Source of the DNA: a virus
Lineage: Duplodnaviria > Heunggongvirae > Uroviricota > Caudoviricetes
Reading direction: 5' to 3' (one strand)
IMG/VR virus record: IMGVR_UViG_3300031707_004017
Length of the DNA: 43,064 bases
Shown: piece by piece, positions 28,525 through 38,420 of the stretch
Position numbering within the stretch: the stretch's first letter is position 1
How the letters are laid out: each line of letters opens with the position of its first letter
Program-made: the position numbers and the translations under genes
The notes under the pieces: model-generated
The model's input: the letters and a program-made list of their open reading frames with translations, nothing else
Databases searched by the model: none
Told to the model about the DNA's origin: nothing

Positions 28525-31500
28525 TCAAGAATCTTTGTAATCCATGAAAGGCATTCTTCGATTATCGACTTTGTCATCTTCTTCTCCATCATCATTTATA
28601 AATTCACTATCATCATCCTTGTCGTCAATGACTTCAGTCATGTCTGTTTCTGCATCTTGGACATTATCAAATCTAACATCGTCCGCTACAATACCAAGAT
28701 AAGCAACTGCTGCAACATGGTCACTCTTTTGCACGTTTTGAATTCTACTGCCTTGAGTATTTCGACCGAGTTTTCTAATTTGGCTAGATCGTAATCGTAT
28801 TAAAATGCCTTTAGCCGTTATAACGATAAATTGTTCTTTATCGTCTTTAATAATACCAGCCGAAACAATTTTCCCAGTAGTATCATTTAAATCCATGCAT
28901 ATAACTCCGCGTCCACCTCTCTTTTGAACTCGAAATTTTCTCAAAATAGTCTTTTTTGAATAACCTTTTTCAGTCACCATCATTATGAATTGTTCTTCGT
29001 GTTTCTCACTTTCAAATATATTCATCGTTATAATATAATTTTCATCTCGTAATTTTATCGATCTAACACCGGCACTACTTTTACCTGATGTGCGAATTGT
29101 CTGCTCATCAAATCTAATTGCAACTCCGTCTCTAGTAATAATTAAGACATTAATATTTGGCTTTTCAATAAACGCTACATCGACTAAAGAATCATCGTCA
29201 TTCAATCCCATAACTCTAGTACCAGTTGATCGTGGTCGTCGTAATTTCTCAGCTTTTAATTTCTTAATTTGACCCTTTTTACTAACCATCAAAAATGTTT
29301 TTCCTATTAAATCTTTCACTGGAATTACTCTGACTACTTTTTCATTTTCATCCATACCAATTACATTAAGAATTGAACTACCTGAAGCAGTTCGTCCCAA
29401 TGATGGTATATCATAAACATTCATTTTATAACAATTACCCATATTAGTAAAAACAAGCGTAGCATCACGAGTTGATAATTGAAAAATGTTTGCGACATAA
29501 TCTTCATCTTTTATGTCGACTCCTATTAGTCCTTTACCTTTTACATTTTGTAACCTATACTCGTTAATCGGAGTACGTTTTACTAACCCTTTATGAGTGA
29601 CTGTTACAATCACATCATCTTCTTGAATTTCTTCAATTTCTTTTATCTGGACTTCATCATTATCATCAGGGCTAGTTTTAATAATCTTCGTCCGTCTTGC
29701 ATCTCCGTAATTTTGTTTAATTTCTGCAAGTTCTCTTTTAATCTCTTTTAATACCAAATCTTCAGAATCTAAAAGTTGCTTTAACTGTGCAATTTTAGTA
29801 AGTAATGTGTTATGTTCATTTAAAATCGTATCGCGTTCAAACTGTGCAAGACGTTGAATTCTCAATTCTAAAATTGCTTTTATTTGCTCATCTGACAGCT
29901 TGTACCTTTTTAACTTTTTAATTGTTTCTTCGTTTGAACGTGATGATTTAACATTAGCAATTAATTCGTCTAAATTATCAAATGCGATCAAAAAACCTTG
30001 CAATATATGATCTTTCTTTTCAGCATTTTTTAATTCAAATTCTGCCCGTCTTATAACGACATTTTTTCGATGATCAAGAAAATGCCAAAATACTTCTTTT
30101 AATCCAACCATTTTTGGTATGTTATTAATCAATGCTCTCATCGATATTGAATATTTACATTGTAATTCAGTTCTTCGATACAATGTATTTAAAACCATTT
30201 TTGCTTTGACACCCTTGCGTAATTCGATTACAATTCGAACTCCCGTCTTATCAGATTCATCCCGAACATCGACTATGCCATCAATACCTTCTAACTTTGT
30301 TTCTTTATCTTGATATAATTGAGCAATACGAGCAATCAATTTAGATTTATCTACTTGATAAGGCACTTCCGTGATGATAATACATTGCTTTTTTCCAGAA
30401 TCGATAATTTCGGCTTTTGCCCTAAGAGTCACTGAACCCTTTCCTGTTTCATATATACTTTCAACATTAGTATCAAACATATATGCGCCTGATGGAAAAT
30501 CAGGACCTTTAATAAACTTTGTTAATTCAGTGATAGTGACATCTTCATTGTCTATAAATGCCAATAACGCGTTAACAACTTCAGTCAAATTATGTGGCGG
30601 TGCTGCAGTAGCCATTCCGACAGCGATGCCAATAGAACCATTCAGTAAAAATAATGGTAATCGTGTAGGCAGTACTTTAGGTTCTTGTAATGTACCATCG
30701 AAATTAGGCATAAAATCAACAGTCTCTTTGTCAATGTCAGCTATAACTTCCTGCGTGATTTCAGCCATCTTCATTTCTGTGTATCGCATTGCTGCCGGAG
30801 GATCTTCTAATGACCCGAAATTGCCTTGACCAATAATTAGCGGATATCTTGTTGTAAATGGTTGCGCGATTCGGACAGCAGTACTATATATGGAATTATG
30901 AACGAGTATTAGTTTTAGTTCGCCATTTTCATTTTTGCCTACTGGAACAAGCATGTTTTCATAGTTATCTACAGTAAAATCATATACTGGTTCATTGTCT
31001 ACAGTAATTACTTCTATGTTTTTGACAATCATCAAATTTCTATTTGACAATGCGTCAAGTAATTCTTTTGTCGTCGTAATATTAAATCGAGCACTCAATG
31101 TTTCAAATTTAGGATAACATCTATTATTTATATTGCCATAACCTTCACCGTCCATTTTGCAAATATCAACTCTAGTATCTTCATAATCTTCAATTGAAAA
31201 GTTCAATCCGTATTCTTTCAAACATTGAACTACAACATGTGAAGCATTTCTCAATACATGACCATCAATTTGTCCCGTTCTATCATGAATGATTTCATCG
31301 TCATCGTCAAATTGCTGCCGTTGTAGTCCTACAGTATGACCTTTTGCTGCTAATGTGTCGATGAGTTTCAATTTGTCTTTTGATCTTGCATATTCAACAA
31401 CTTCACTAAATGTATGACCATTTTCAATTAGTCTTGTAATCTTTGTTCCATTGTAAAGTTTTGTTCGATATTGCTCATAAAGTTCCTGAGTAGGCTCTAA

Positions 31501-32448
31501 ACCATCTTCAATAATCAACTTTACAATTTTTATTGCCTTAAACAGATAGTGTTTTTGATTTACAGCCTTGATTATTTCTGAATTCTTTTTTCTTGTAGCT
31601 TCTCGAAATTCAGTCGTTCCATGAAACATTGTCTCTCGACCTTTATCAAACCCTATTTCATAATTCTTATGCAGCTTCTCATGTTCAGCTTTTGTTATCG
31701 GTCGCAAATTACTTGGAACATTGTTTTTTGTATCCTCATCAATATGATGATAAATTTCCGATTCACCATAAATTGCCTCACCAACAATATGATGGATTTT
31801 CTTACTAAATGACAAGAAATCATTAGCAGATCTAAACTTCGCATACTCATGTGATGCTATAATACCATTTGCAATAGTATCACCAACTTTAATTTCATCT
31901 GTTCTTTTCCAATCATCAATTATTTCACATAATTCATGATTATCAGTCAATTCGATTACTTCATCATTCCAAAATGTCACTCTATAAAGCTTGTCAACTT
32001 GCTTTGTAACTCTGAATGAATGAGCTTCAGCAGGAATAATACTATTAGTCTGTTTGTCATAAGCTAATACCCATAGTCTTTTTCCTACTAAATCTTTCCA
32101 CTGATATGTATTACCGTCAAGACCTGCTGCAAGTGTATTTCCTCGACAACATCCATCTCCATGAGGATGCAATTTCCCCATAACATCACCGACGACTCTA
32201 GCAGATTTTCTAGTCGGCTTATTATGTGCAAGTCCCATTTCATTCATGCTAAAAAGTATACGTCGTGCAACTGGCTTAAGACCATCACGAATATCAGGCA
32301 ATGAACGATCTTTGATGACACTCAAAGCATAAGCCAAATACATCTTTGGTAATACTTCATGTGATTTCACATCAAATTGACCAATTTCTTGACCAATATT
32401 GATTTCTTCTTCTCGATCTTCTTCTCGATCTTCGATCTCATCTGCCAT
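28525..32448 (-). CDS. gyrA: DNA gyrase subunit A (type IIA topoisomerase) with a 419-aa cis-intein
   Basis: [27 protein letters not shown], catalytic AAMRYTE, GPDFP, six-bladed CTD repeats, acidic tail. Confidence 0.95.
30895..32151 (-). mobile_element. GyrA intein with HNH homing endonuclease motif
   Basis: Block A CCRGNT after HPHGDG, block B LTDNH, HNH motif HHIV...[15 protein letters not shown]...HEKLH (~31668-31795), block F VYDFTV, block G VHN followed by Ser. Removal restores [17 protein letters not shown]. Confidence 0.93.
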
Positions 32449-32459
32449 CTGTTCACTCC

Positions 32460-33230
32460 TTAAGCGTCAATTGCATCTTCATCTATCATTAACGCATTTT
32501 GCACGATGTATTCTCTTCGACTATCAACATCATTTCCCATCAATATAGTAAATATTCGATCTGTTTCAGCTTCGTCTGTAACGATAACTTTAGCTAATCT
32601 TCGTGTCTCAGGATTCATTGTTGTCTCACCAAGTTGTTCAGGATTCATTTCTCCTAAACCCTTAAATCGAGTAATCACTGCTTTATCTGGATTCTTCACT
32701 GATTTTTTCCAAGCTGCCAAGGCTTCATCGTCAGCCAAATAAAAATCATTTGTACCATACTTGACTTTATACAATGGTGGTTGAGCTATATAAACATGAC
32801 CATTCATCAATAACGGCTTCATAAACCTATAAAATACTGTCAATAGCAACGAAGAAATATGAGCGCCGTCGACATCAGCATCACAACTGATGATAATCTT
32901 ACCATATCGAAGTTTTGAAATATCACCAGTTTGAATGTTTATGCCGATTGCAGCAATCAATGCTTTTACTTCTTTATTCTCAAGTATCTCAGACAGCTCG
33001 CTCTTTTCGACATTCAATATTTTCCCTCGTAATGGCAAAACTGCTTGAAAAACTCTGTTGCGTCCCATCTTTGCAGAGCCACCTGCAGAATTATGAACAA
33101 CAAAACCACCATCTATCAAAAATGAATGGTCTTCTTCGACGTCAATATCGTGCAACTCTTCATCATCTTCAAAAAACTCAATTTTTTCTGGATGACAATA
33201 CGTATAGTTTACTGCTATCAATTTATTCAA
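32460..33230 (-). CDS. gyrB: Split-intein C-fragment (47 aa) fused to GyrB C-terminal TOPRIM/tail part
   Basis: TTG start 5 nt after GGAGG; ...[14 protein letters not shown]|[37 protein letters not shown]. Confidence 0.92.
33090..33230 (-). mobile_element. IntC half of split intein
   Basis: Block [13 protein letters not shown], block G VHN, +1 Ser. Confidence 0.9.
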
Positions 33231-33286
33231 CTGATCCTCCCTAACTACTTTCTGGGGATTATTTTCATAAAATGAAATACGAAAAA

Positions 33287-33478
33287 CTATCGAACAAAAC
33301 CACGACGGCGTAGGTTCTTAAAATGATGAGAAGTGACTTGATACTGGGCTTCATGGAAACAGTCTTTGCACTTAAGAATTACATCCATATTAGCCTCGTA
33401 GGTATCCGGATTAATCTCATTGATAGTCTCAAGATTGCGGCCACCACATGAAACACAGATTGTTACACGTTGAGCCAT
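33287..33478 (-). CDS. Small zinc-ribbon protein (63 aa) between the two gyrB halves
   Basis: CVSC-x25-CKDC with a basic tail KNLRRRGFVR; AAGGA SD upstream. Confidence 0.75.
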   Translation of the reverse strand: MAQRVTICVSCGGRNLETINEINPDTYEANMDVILKCKDCFHEAQYQVTSHHFKNLRRRGFVR

Positions 33479-33533
33479 TTGAGTTTTCCTTCTCGGTCAA
33501 TGTTAATTAAATCAAGAGCATACCCTAAGTATT

Positions 33534-33866
33534 TCATTCAATAAACTCTCGAATATCAACAACCTTACAATATTCATCGCCCGGTAACACAGTCTTAACT
33601 AACAAATCAGTTGTTGTTAATTCACGAGCCGGCACCCACTCACAAACTTCACTATTAGCTCGAAGTACTCCCCAAAGATGATCTTCTGAACAAACAAAAG
33701 TTTTCCCTTGTATAGTAATTCGACATTTCTTTCTTTTTACTTTTGGTTTTCGTTCTAAGGCAGGTCTGTATCTATGCATATGCGTATAAATCATATCGCC
33801 AGTCTTAATTTCATCAAGCCGCTTAAGTCCTTCTTTCGTATGAATCAATGTATCGCCCTTAAAGCA
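33534..33866 (-). mobile_element. IntN half of split intein
   Basis: Block A CFKGDTLIHT, block B CSEDHLW, ELTTTDLL; TGA stop with no endonuclease and no HN terminus. Confidence 0.9.
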
Positions 33867-35171
33867 GTCACCTTCGACCACAAAAACTTCGCAAATATCA
33901 ACATTCTTGCTTGAGCAATCAGCCAACTTGCCAGGCAAGATTGTTGATGACAAAACATTTTTTCTCCGAACTGCATCACGAGCCTTCCTTGCTTCTTCCC
34001 TTGCTATACAGGCTTGCGAAACTTTACTAGCAATCAACATCGCCGTATCATCATTACTTGAAAAATACGATGTAATTGCATCAAGTACCTGATTGTAAAC
34101 AATTTCTTTGATTTCAGGATTGCCAAGTGTAGATTTTGTTTGGCCTTCAAATTCAGGATTAGGAAGTTTAATAGAAACGATTGCAACCAGTCCTTCAAGA
34201 ACATCTCGTGGAGTAGGTCTAATATCTAGACCTTTAAATAACTTTTGTTTTTCAGCATATTTAATAATTGCCTCAAGCAATGCCGATTTAAAACCTGATA
34301 AATGCGACCCACCATCTCTTGTATGAACATTATTCGCAAATGAAAAAACTACATCTGAATATGCTTTATTATATTGAAAAGCTATTTCAATTCTAATATC
34401 ATACCGTCCCAACACATCATTCTTAACTTTAACTTCATCATCAAGATGGATAATCGGACTGAGAATTTCTTTGTCTTTATTTAACTCTTCGATAAAAGCA
34501 ACAATACCACCATCAGAATAAAATTCATCTTTTTCGCCTGTCCTCTCGTCAACTATCTCAATCCTGACGCCTCTATTTAAATATGCTAATTCTTTCAATC
34601 TATCATGTAAAATTTTATATTCAAATTCTACAGTTTGAAAAATTGTACGATCAGGTTTAAATTTAACGACAGTTCCCGTCTTGTCGGTTGCAATACCTTT
34701 AGTAAATTGCGTAGCAATTTGGCCCTTTTTGTAAGTTTGATGCCAATAAAAACCTTCACGACAAATCGTAAGATCTAAAGTATCTGATAGAAAGTTCACT
34801 GCTGAAACGCCAATTCCATGTAAACCTGAAGCTGTCTTATAAGATGTACTATCAAATTTACCACCAGATCGAAGAGATGTCATAACCATTTCTGCTGCGG
34901 GCTTACCTGTGTCTGAATGAATACCGACAGGAATGCCTCGACCATTATCTACTATAGTAACAAATCCATCTTTATGAATGACACACGAAATCTTATTGCC
35001 ATAACCATTTGTAATTTCATCGATACTATTATCTACGACTTCATATACAAGATGGTGCAATCCAAATGCACCTGTATCACCAATATACATCGCCGGCCGT
35101 AGTCTTACATGTGAACGATCGTCAAGCTGTTGAATTGAACTTTCATCGTATTTTCCTCTTTGACTTGCCAT
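33534..35171 (-). CDS. gyrB: GyrB N-terminal part (GHKL ATPase + transducer, 435 aa) fused to a 110-aa split-intein N-fragment
   Basis: HVRLRPAMYIG, EVVDNSIDE, DNGRGIP, GGKF...SGLHGIGVSAVN, FEGQTK, LPGKLADC, VVEGD|CFKGDT. Confidence 0.93.
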   Translation of the reverse strand: MASQRGKYDESSIQQLDDRSHVRLRPAMYIGDTGAFGLHHLVYEVVDNSIDEITNGYGNKISCVIHKDGFVTIVDNGRGIPVGIHSDTGKPAAEMVMTSLRSGGKFDSTSYKTASGLHGIGVSAVNFLSDTLDLTICREGFYWHQTYKKGQIATQFTKGIATDKTGTVVKFKPDRTIFQTVEFEYKILHDRLKELAYLNRGVRIEIVDERTGEKDEFYSDGGIVAFIEELNKDKEILSPIIHLDDEVKVKNDVLGRYDIRIEIAFQYNKAYSDVVFSFANNVHTRDGGSHLSGFKSALLEAIIKYAEKQKLFKGLDIRPTPRDVLEGLVAIVSIKLPNPEFEGQTKSTLGNPEIKEIVYNQVLDAITSYFSSNDDTAMLIASKVSQACIAREEARKARDAVRRKNVLSSTILPGKLADCSSKNVDICEVFVVEGDCFKGDTLIHTKEGLKRLDEIKTGDMIYTHMHRYRPALERKPKVKRKKCRITIQGKTFVCSEDHLWGVLRANSEVCEWVPARELTTTDLLVKTVLPGDEYCKVVDIREFIE

Positions 35172-35995: not shown

Positions 35996-36170
35996 ACATT
36001 AAAATATGTGCTTTTGGAACTGTTATTTTGTGACGATGAATGTCCGTTATAGTCAAAAATGTATTAAAATTAAATAAACTAATAAATCGTCTTCTAGCAC
36101 GTTTAAATTCTCTCTCATTAACAATAATAGCAAATCCATTTATCAATTGAATCACGTGTTGACTGTTCAT
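35949..36170 (-). CDS. Hypothetical protein
   Basis: 73-aa ORF with an ATGA overlap with the UDG stop. Confidence 0.5.
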   Translation of the reverse strand: MNSQHVIQLINGFAIIVNEREFKRARRRFISLFNFNTFLTITDIHRHKITVPKAHILMFEHYNEDEIKIQKDN

Positions 36171-36778
36171 AAATATTTTTTAATGTTTTTTGCTATCTCA
36201 TTTATATAATTGTCTCTTTCGTTTTCTAGCATGTATGTGCTTATGTAACTTGGATGGTACGAAAAAACCATTGGTTTTTTCAAATTTAATCTCTTTACAG
36301 TACTCTTTGCAACAGTACCAAATGCAATAATTACTTTTACTTTTTGTAATAAGTTAATACGCGCTGATAAAAATTGCAAGCAATTCTCAATTTCATCTAT
36401 TTGTGGTTTACGATAATTTGGTGGACTGCAGCAAACTACATTAAAGTGCTGTATGTCATTCCACGTCAAACCGGCCCTTTGAAATATTTCAAATAAGCGT
36501 TTGCCAATTAATGCTACATTCTGGATTCTATCATCATACATTTTATGAAAATCTTCAAGCTTATTAATAAAAATTTCGCCTTTTTGTGGTTTATAAATCC
36601 CTGGCGCCTCACAAATCGAACAGACTGTAGCTTTAGCGTAATGTCTTGAATCAAATCCTAAAACCGGACAATTGTGTATTTTTTTGATTCTTAAATCATA
36701 CAATTCTTGACATTTATCACAATTAAATATCTGCTGTTCAATATCATGAACTTTTTGCTGTAATAATGAAAATTTCAT
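36167..36778 (-). CDS. Uracil-DNA glycosylase, family 4-like (Fe-S)
   Basis: CDKC, EAPG motif, NVVCCSPPNYRKP..EIENC, IIAFG, YHPS. Confidence 0.85.
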   Translation of the reverse strand: MKFSLLQQKVHDIEQQIFNCDKCQELYDLRIKKIHNCPVLGFDSRHYAKATVCSICEAPGIYKPQKGEIFINKLEDFHKMYDDRIQNVALIGKRLFEIFQRAGLTWNDIQHFNVVCCSPPNYRKPQIDEIENCLQFLSARINLLQKVKVIIAFGTVAKSTVKRLNLKKPMVFSYHPSYISTYMLENERDNYINEIAKNIKKYL

Positions 36779-37887
36779 AGAAAAATTGGATTGTTAGCTG
36801 CATCAACGACCTGATAATGATTTAAATAAGCGTTAATATGATCGAACCTATCACAAAATTTACATTGAGAAAACTTTTTATCGCAGTTCATAAACGCGTC
36901 TAAAACTTCGAGGTATTTATCGCTTTCATATATTTGCCGTAAATTATTTTCATTAATATTTCCAATTACGAATTTAGTCTGTTGATTGTCTATTGAAAAT
37001 ACGGGCTCGTACATGTAACAACATGGAAACACATTTCCATCAGACGCTATTAATCCGAATATTTTTGGAATATAGCATGAATGATATTCATAATTGATTA
37101 AAGTATCGTAATGTTTATACACATTATCTAAGTTTATTTTCTTATCAAGTTGTAATGTCGCACTTTTAGGATGACCAAAAATCTTTGACATTTCTAACGA
37201 AATAATGATCATCAAATTAGTTTTATAATCCTCATTAGGACCATAAAAAGAATGTAATTTATTTATAATATCTCTCGAAAGCCAAAAATATATCTCAGTG
37301 TCAATATCGTTCTCAATTAAAAAATCTACTAAATTATCAGCAAAATTACACTTATTATAATCATGTATTGTTACATTTAGTCGTGTTTTACATTGCGTTT
37401 TCTCGTTCTCTTTTAATAATGTTTTTAAATTATTTGTCCACTGCTCAAACATATCGACACCGCGAGTTTTAGCATAATTTTCTGCCGTAAATCCATCAGT
37501 TGAAAATCTTATCCAACTGCAATCTCCTGATAATGACTCCCAGTCTAATGATGCGCATGCTAATCCAGATGTTATTATACCTATATTAAGACCATGCACT
37601 TGTTTTAGTTCACGAACGACACTTTCGATTTCAGGATAAAGCAATGGTTCACCGCCTGAGAAAACAATAGATTGTAGAGAATCAAAGTATTCTAAATAAG
37701 GTAATACATTCTTTAACAAAATATTTTTATCAATTTTTGTTTTAACCGGCCATTTCCAGTGGTCGCAACCTTTACACTTACAGACACAATAATCAGTGAG
37801 ATCAATTTGCAATGTCATTAGACATTGATTAGCTATCTTAATTCTATCAGCATAAGCTCTCAGTTTTTGTTCAGCTGCTAATTTCAT
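36775..37887 (-). CDS. Radical SAM protein with SPASM/twitch domain
   Basis: CxxxCxxC (CVCKCKGC), FSGGEPLL, C-terminal C...GNVFPCC...IGNI...C..C. Confidence 0.9.
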   Translation of the reverse strand: MKLAAEQKLRAYADRIKIANQCLMTLQIDLTDYCVCKCKGCDHWKWPVKTKIDKNILLKNVLPYLEYFDSLQSIVFSGGEPLLYPEIESVVRELKQVHGLNIGIITSGLACASLDWESLSGDCSWIRFSTDGFTAENYAKTRGVDMFEQWTNNLKTLLKENEKTQCKTRLNVTIHDYNKCNFADNLVDFLIENDIDTEIYFWLSRDIINKLHSFYGPNEDYKTNLMIIISLEMSKIFGHPKSATLQLDKKINLDNVYKHYDTLINYEYHSCYIPKIFGLIASDGNVFPCCYMYEPVFSIDNQQTKFVIGNINENNLRQIYESDKYLEVLDAFMNCDKKFSQCKFCDRFDHINAYLNHYQVVDAANNPIFL

Positions 37888-38420
37888 TATTCATCCTTGT
37901 TGCAAAAGCCCATTACAACATCAATTACTGCTGATTGATTAAATTTACCCGTGTCAATAATAATTGATTTTATTAAAGTAGCATTTTGTGCTTTATCAAA
38001 CAATGTTGTTAATAATTCAAAATCTTCTTTATTGTAAACTTGATTTTTTTCGCTTAATCTACCACAAATAATATCGTAATCACATGTTAAAAATACCATT
38101 TTAACATTGCATTTTGATAACGCAGTATCAATCATTCTAAAATTTTTAAAAGCTTCTACTTCGCTAGCCTGTCTAATGGCAACACTATAAGCATACTCTG
38201 ACACATGTAATCTATCAAATAAAATATTGTCTGTCACGGTCTTTGCAAACCATGTCACGCAACAATTTACACCAAAAGAAAAATCTGTTACTTGAGAATT
38301 CTTAGCGCTTATTAGTTCTGGAAATGATCTTCGGCATGTAAAAGTCTTAAAATAAGATTGTAATGCTTCAACTAGTGTTGTTTTACCAGTATTGTGGATT
38401 CCTTCAATTATCAATAACAT
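37887..38420 (-). CDS. Thymidylate/dNMP kinase-like P-loop protein
   Basis: IIEGIHNTGKTT P-loop and FDRLHVSEYAY motif. Confidence 0.8.
   Translation of the reverse strand: MLLIIEGIHNTGKTTLVEALQSYFKTFTCRRSFPELISAKNSQVTDFSFGVNCCVTWFAKTVTDNILFDRLHVSEYAYSVAIRQASEVEAFKNFRMIDTALSKCNVKMVFLTCDYDIICGRLSEKNQVYNKEDFELLTTLFDKAQNATLIKSIIIDTGKFNQSAVIDVVMGFCNKDE

Follow-up and report, generated by a model that had tools for sequence, protein, structure and literature searches.

The stretch of DNA analysed here (hereafter, the window) is part of the genome of an uncultured sediment phage, 43,064 nt long (IMG/VR record IMGVR_UViG_3300031707_004017), and its gyrase region, all genes of which lie on the minus strand, contains a gyrB that is very probably a fractured gene. 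It is interrupted between the Asp and Ser residues of the EGD|SAGG motif by a class 1 intein, which is itself split at the point where an endonuclease is usually inserted. Since the intein itself is split, GyrB should be made as two polypeptides encoded by adjacent genes of the same strand, one ending with the N-terminal half of the intein (IntN) and the other beginning with its C-terminal half (IntC).

The first open reading frame (ORF) of the pair (33534-35171, minus strand, 545 aa) begins with the gyrB N-extein (residues 1-435; 33867..35171), which comprises the GHKL ATPase and transducer domains (Pfam HATPase_c and DNA_gyraseB) and breaks off at CEVFVVEGD, in the E-G-D motif of the TOPRIM domain. 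The following 110 aa constitute IntN (33537..33866; CFKGDTLIHT…CSEDHLWG…VVDIREFIE), whose Cys1 (33866-33864) is residue 436 of the ORF and whose block B is CSEDH; IntN also bears a basic patch, RYRPALERKPKVKRKKCR, and the gene is closed by a TGA stop codon (33534..33536). A spacer of 303 nt (33231..33533), corresponding in position to a putative Vsr-like homing endonuclease gene of relatives, separates it from the second ORF (32460-33230, minus strand, 256 aa). The latter starts with a TTG codon at 33230, the earliest common in-frame start, preceded at 5 nt by a GGAGG Shine-Dalgarno sequence (33236..33240). IntC (47 aa, 33090..33230) is acidic, with a net charge of -11, and ends with VVHN, while the gyrB C-extein (209 aa, 32463..33089) opens with Ser+1 (33089-33087) in SAGGSAK and carries the remainder of TOPRIM (DADVDG) and the C-terminal domain of GyrB (Pfam Toprim and DNA_gyraseB_C). 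An earlier reading of this DNA (hereafter, the original prediction) had proposed the same coordinates, the VVEGD end of the N-extein, the lengths of both intein halves, the stop codon and the separately initiated C-half, all of which were borne out on the minus strand.

The exteins fit together exactly, as had also been proposed. Once both halves of the intein are removed, there remains a GyrB of 644 aa whose EGDSAGG motif is intact and which aligns over its full length, with no gaps and with 87.6% identity, to an intein-free GyrB (P0010) encoded on a related contig, where the junction reads VVEGDSAAGSAK. As for the intein, Cys1 stands straight after VVEGD and is invariant in 14 homologues; of the T/S-x-x-H block B, represented by CSEDH, the residues S, D and H are invariant among the 14 IntN sequences; and His-Asn of blocks F/G is followed by the Ser nucleophile in 12 of the 12 IntC sequences. 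A phmmer search of all PDB chains showed the split intein gp41-1 to be the best match of IntN (E=3e-9, with CSEDHLW aligned to CSEEHLW), and IntC aligned with blocks F/G of the DnaE split inteins in PDB (E from 0.002 to 0.04). IntN and IntC belong to separate ORFs with a stop and a start of their own, an arrangement which is conserved, and, like the halves of other fractured genes, they share one locus and one orientation, 303 nt apart. In an exhaustive HMMER search against 1.84 billion representatives, all five clusters related to IntN below E=1e-30 were N-halves of split GyrB, and the next match beyond this family had an E-value of only 1.6e-16 with 32% identity, so IntN has no close contiguous relative.

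The same split at the same site was found on at least 14 distinct contigs, which come from assemblies of different samples (JGI, ENA, NCBI and Logan) and are up to 262 kb long. Loci with names joined by a slash, such as L002/L003, are counted here as one distinct locus. Among 5.8 billion proteins, 14 further N-halves (524-560 aa) matched with 97-100% query coverage, the intein half included, and 65-78% identity, and 19 further C-halves carried IntC at the start and read HN|SAGGSAK. The N-extein of the window is 76% identical to the extein of L001. Each of the relatives' C-halves has its own Shine-Dalgarno sequence and its own start, which is ATG, GTG or TTG at the equivalent residue. In the window, the interval 33230-33534, which the original prediction had singled out for checking, is bridged by an independently built Logan contig spanning 32673-33939 with zero differences; the sole sequencing run with this locus, a sediment run, is, however, probably the source sample, and therefore this contig tests the assembler and not the sample.

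Two proteins in nr, labelled "ATP-binding protein" and "toprim domain-containing protein" and assigned to a metagenome-assembled genome of Nitrosarchaeum, are halves of split GyrB. The respective contig (L003; GCA_030650065.1, JAUSEY010000306.1, 102,850 bp), binned as Nitrosarchaeum sp., is syntenic with the window phage, sharing the gene order radical SAM, UDG, split gyrB, gyrA, topoisomerase I, and is probably a mis-binned phage contig. No close relative was found by blastn among the INPHARED phage records, where all matches were short and confined to GyrB. In 185,579 species genomes, the DNA pattern for VEGD|CFx[GA]DT had two matches, both due to chance and neither in GyrB, and in IMG/VR it had a single match, the L005 contig; the pattern is narrow and thus just a weak sign that the split family is absent from cellular genomes.

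Both halves of the intein are evidently kept by strong purifying selection. Pairwise ratios of nonsynonymous to synonymous substitution rates (dN/dS) among five close loci were 0.06-0.15 for IntN, 0.06-0.16 for IntC and 0.07-0.23 for the exteins, these values being rough because the synonymous sites are near saturation; judged by these ratios, there is clearly no decay of the intein halves. In the divergent hosts L007, L008, L011 and L014 the exteins are 36-52% identical to those of the window, IntN 53-65% and IntC 70-79%, and, taking relatives generally, IntC stays at 70-85% identity even where the exteins fall to just 36-50%. Such conservation of an insert above the level of its essential host gene is what would be predicted for horizontal spread by homing.

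The halves also appear to be suited to finding each other. The basic patch of IntN reaches up to +7 locally, opposite to the charge of IntC, and the predicted complex of IntN and IntC had an interaction prediction score from aligned errors (ipSAE) of 0.68, compared with 0.08 for the best control, although the model may owe part of this score to solved split inteins that it has memorised and, given how well these are represented among solved structures, the score shows likeness more than binding of this particular pair. Of 78 solved complexes, 51 attained the mark used for such predictions, as did 2 of 108 mismatched pairs. The runs had at least 82% of contacts in common, with a predicted local distance difference test score (pLDDT) of the partner of at least 63, and placed the interface between residues 434-529 on the IntN side and 7-48 on the IntC side. 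The prediction supports association of the two halves. The natural split intein put forward by the original prediction is thus upheld by its recurrence, by purifying selection, by the invariance of the catalytic residues and by the predicted association.

We suppose the following sequence of events. Attraction between the basic patch of IntN and the acidic IntC would bring the halves together, and they would fold as a single HINT domain; Cys1 would form a thioester, which would be attacked by Ser+1, and the terminal Asn would cyclise. Joined by a peptide bond, the exteins would yield the GyrB of 644 aa, in which EGDSAGGSAK is intact and the junction peptide is …VVEGDSAGGSAK…, and this GyrB would pair with GyrA, which itself needs excision of a contiguous intein.

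The history of the element can be approached through the gap between the intein halves, which varies strikingly among the relatives. A full ORF of 340-380 aa is complete in L002/L003, L007/L016, L008, L014, L015 and L017, where the gap measures 1099-1204 nt, and is also found in L012, whose contig ends inside it (coordinates of the full ORF are 7642-8745 in L002, 3892-4974 in L007 and 3794-4942 in L008). The seven full spacer ORFs are mutually homologous (43-63% identity). In L004, L011 and L013 (183-356 nt) tblastn revealed recognisable fragments of this ORF. The gap is empty in L001/L005, where it equals -1 nt owing to the stop/start overlap TAATG, and in L010 (17 nt), and in the window its 303 nt are occupied by unrelated sequence with a 63-aa ORF. 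Finally, close relatives such as P0010 (its extein identity being given as 83%) have no intein at all. The idea of an atypical split point was rejected: the break falls where the relatives have the endonuclease gene, and halves of 110 and 47 aa agree with the canonical split.

The spacer ORF of the relatives has no Pfam match. It carries the motifs CxxC…H…H and CGWC and a C-terminal PVDGYC…VFEFFGDKWHxNP, and the top structural matches of its AlphaFold2 model (pLDDT 74) were Vsr (1vsr, probability 0.99, E=0.045) and the homing endonuclease I-Bth0305I (3r3p); it may therefore be a Vsr-like homing endonuclease, although in E-value the structural match is weak. In L002 the conserved N-terminus of this ORF, NINRICKICG, is not preceded by ATG, GTG or TTG despite an upstream AGGAGA, and thus its start may be non-canonical. 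The element could have arrived and spread among divergent phage gyrB genes with such a free-standing endonuclease gene between its halves, and the gene would later have been lost from the window.

In the window the gap contains the unrelated orphan ORF of 63 aa (33287..33478, minus strand; CxxC…CxxC, zinc-ribbon-like), which the original prediction did not mention. Its sole match among the 5.8 billion proteins is itself, no Pfam or PHROG family matches it above threshold, its predicted fold, of modest confidence, shows a generic likeness to zinc ribbons (Atlas, AlphaFold2; pLDDT 71), and a weak Shine-Dalgarno-like AAGGA lies upstream. That this ORF is a remnant of the endonuclease was considered and rejected: tblastn of the relatives' endonuclease against the gap of the window gave no real match, and the few motifs lined up by MAFFT are unsupported. 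Searches of the gap for a promoter, a terminator and an RNA fold gave nothing above chance (z=-1.2).

Several points weigh against a spliced, fractured gyrB. Pfam Hint_2 remained below the threshold (19.7 vs 28.4 bits); the spacer of the window is devoid of the free-standing homing endonuclease gene, which is a hallmark of the classic fractured-gene arrangement, and the structural match that would make an endonuclease of the relatives' ORF is weak, as said above; the spliced junction in GyrB is deduced here from the sequence; and the near-saturated synonymous sites, the single sequencing run and the possible memory behind the complex score should be counted as well. One might suppose instead that the two products form a non-covalent GyrB complex in which the intein halves act as charged association tails and no splicing occurs, as has been proposed for T4 gp39/gp60 and demonstrated for the Aeh1 NrdA fragments. 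Endonuclease-fractured phage enzymes, T4 topoisomerase II included, do assemble unspliced via oppositely charged tails (PMC3045599), and the halves in the window do carry opposite charges. We nevertheless consider this explanation improbable because every catalytic residue of the intein is conserved: Cys1, S-x-D-H of block B, His-Asn and Ser+1 are kept in all members, even at 36-50% extein identity. Moreover, the break falls within the catalytic EGDSAGG loop, so that, if the intein were retained, the DNA gate would have to accommodate about 157 aa of it, and dN/dS of the whole intein is as low as that of the exteins. In T4 the large subunit of topoisomerase II was split into gp39 and gp60 by the insertion of mobA (PMC3045599), and in both cases a homing endonuclease has invaded, leaving the ATPase/TOPRIM subunit of a phage type IIA topoisomerase divided between two genes; however, the T4 proteins are intein-free and thought to be held together non-covalently, whereas the break in the window is flanked by complete intein halves with all catalytic residues.

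Nor does the split seem to come from an assembly or sequencing error, or from a contiguous mini-intein that was recently disrupted by a frameshift or nonsense mutation, which would make gyrB a pseudogene. The overlap TAATG of L001/L005, taken alone, could pass for a frameshifted contiguous intein, and the locus of the window is known from one run, probably its source; yet the identical break recurs in all of the contigs enumerated above with gaps of anything between -1 and 1204 nt, every C-half is equipped with translation start signals of its own, both halves are under purifying selection, and the contig of the second assembler bridges the gap with no variants. The artefact explanation is therefore largely refuted and retains only a very small probability. 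Still more improbable is recoding, by which read-through, frameshifting or ribosomal bypass would produce a single polypeptide spliced in cis. The topoisomerase gene 60 of T4, the classic example of translational bypass, provides a precedent, and the arrangement in L001 is just one frame shift away from a contiguous gene, but in the window the gap is 303 nt long, the ORF within it lies in a different frame, and the frame of the N-half is interrupted there by stops, the C-half possesses a strong GGAGG sequence and its own start, and in relatives the gap of 1.1-1.2 kb contains a separate gene.

The fractured gyrB, thus preferred, can be compared with the systems already described. Fractured genes with split inteins were discovered in ocean metagenomes, the inteins including gp41-1 to gp41-9, NrdJ-1, NrdA-2, IMPDH-1 and DnaE-2 (Dassa et al., 2009; PMC2677866); helicase, IMPDH, DnaE, NrdA, NrdJ, ligase and terminase are among the eight fractured enzyme types of that work, in which neither the word gyrase nor the word topoisomerase is used. 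The locus in the window resembles them in the presence of both halves in one locus and in the same orientation, in the split at the endonuclease point, in the phage context, in the complementary charges (basic N- and acidic C-halves were reported for gp41-1 and gp41-8; PMC2677866) and, as far as its relatives are concerned, in the presumed free-standing Vsr-like homing endonuclease. There is also a precedent for endonuclease-free alleles, such as those of the window, L001 and L010, in gp41-7 (PMC2677866). The differences are that the host protein is GyrB and that the spacer of the window harbours the unrelated zinc-ribbon-like ORF.

With gp41-1 (6riz, 6qaz) the intein shares about one third of identical residues over approximately 70 positions (E=3e-9), Cys1, the S-E-x-H block B, Ser+1 and a basic IntN combined with an acidic IntC. 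It differs in the host gene, in the flanks GD|SAG and in the lengths of the halves, 110 and 47 aa. Those of gp41-1 are reportedly 88 and 37 aa.

Contiguous GyrB inteins of the known SAGG|SAK kind occupy another position. Those found by us, in Omnitrophota (P0078 and P0055), read EGDSAGG|CF…HN|SAK and are thus inserted four residues downstream of the site in the window, which is where the original prediction placed the contiguous GyrB intein of Synechocystis. The two kinds share the host protein, the TOPRIM loop, Cys1 with Ser+1 and a similar start (CFSGDT vs CFKGDT); however, the SAGG|SAK inteins are contiguous and not close in sequence, and their insertion point is not that of the window, which is split at EGD|SAGG. 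The Ssp GyrB intein presumably resides at SAGG|SAK too. Among the 391 proteins retrieved, no contiguous intein at EGD|S was detected.

P0247 (548 aa, a more bacterial-like GyrB N-half) and P0265 (619 aa, a T4-like topoisomerase II large subunit) end in IntN right after VVEGD/VVEGE, and since they are broken at the homologous point, the TOPRIM site seems to have been used repeatedly in distant type IIA topoisomerases. A 54-kb contig encodes P0153, a protein of 244 aa whose start lies about 40 aa ahead of FVHN|SAKQ; it may be either a split form at the classical SAGG|SAK site or the result of a mis-called start within a contiguous intein. P0139 and the C-halves of L014 and L015 contain a contiguous mini-intein at IIM|C…N|CDADPDG, and the 986-aa N-half of L007 (836-3796) contains an extra contiguous intein.

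As to the novelty of the pair and its site, suggested by the original prediction, no description of a natural split GyrB intein was found in the searchable literature, which subscription journals and InBase lie outside of and which mentions only an artificially split Ssp GyrB intein. At the same time, no new principle is involved, the gene being a fractured one and the intein related to gp41-1, and two of the proteins were already present in nr.

Directly downstream of gyrB lies gyrA (28525..32448, minus strand), which is also interrupted, by a contiguous intein (about 410 aa) that includes an HNH_3 domain and is inserted as HPHGDG|C…LVHN|SIYSTAV; GyrA of L005 (879 aa) is intein-free and reads HPHSDGSIYGAAV. 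Given the contiguous intein in gyrA and the split one in gyrB, both gyrase subunits would need protein splicing. The C-terminal domain of GyrA contains the GyrA-box-like QKRGGRG, from which we presume that the enzyme is a true gyrase. Upstream of gyrB (36167-38420, minus strand) the window encodes a P-loop kinase-like protein, a radical SAM/SPASM protein and a UDG-family protein, and this cluster is kept in L001, L002 and L004. The phage genes of the window include those of the major head protein, prohead protease, portal, large terminase and a sigma factor, and topoisomerase I, a collagen-repeat protein, a radical SAM enzyme and a UDG-family protein are encoded as well. Rfam and tRNA scans of the window detected nothing.

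Since both subunits are interrupted at loops of the DNA gate and the quinolone pocket, one could speculate that gyrase maturation is a regulated step, and not just a burden imposed by silent parasites, and that the zinc-ribbon-like gene is a functional passenger, for instance, modulating splicing or expression of the C-half. We regard this as unlikely; if true, active gyrase would be formed only under particular infection conditions.

For genome annotation it is worth bearing in mind that halves of split GyrB are deposited in public databases under the generic names "ATP-binding protein" and "toprim domain-containing protein". Split inteins of natural origin generally perform better than artificial ones, and gp41-1 is among the fastest known. 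The GyrB pair, related to gp41-1 and having small native junction residues (GD|SAG), may thus be a reasonable candidate for an engineering tool. In general, these loci would extend the fractured-gene arrangement to DNA gyrase B, at a site within the catalytic TOPRIM loop for which we found no earlier description, and the split GyrB family displays at this one site what correspond to all stages of the homing cycle, from alleles with an intact putative endonuclease, through its remnants and its clean loss, to alleles free of the intein.

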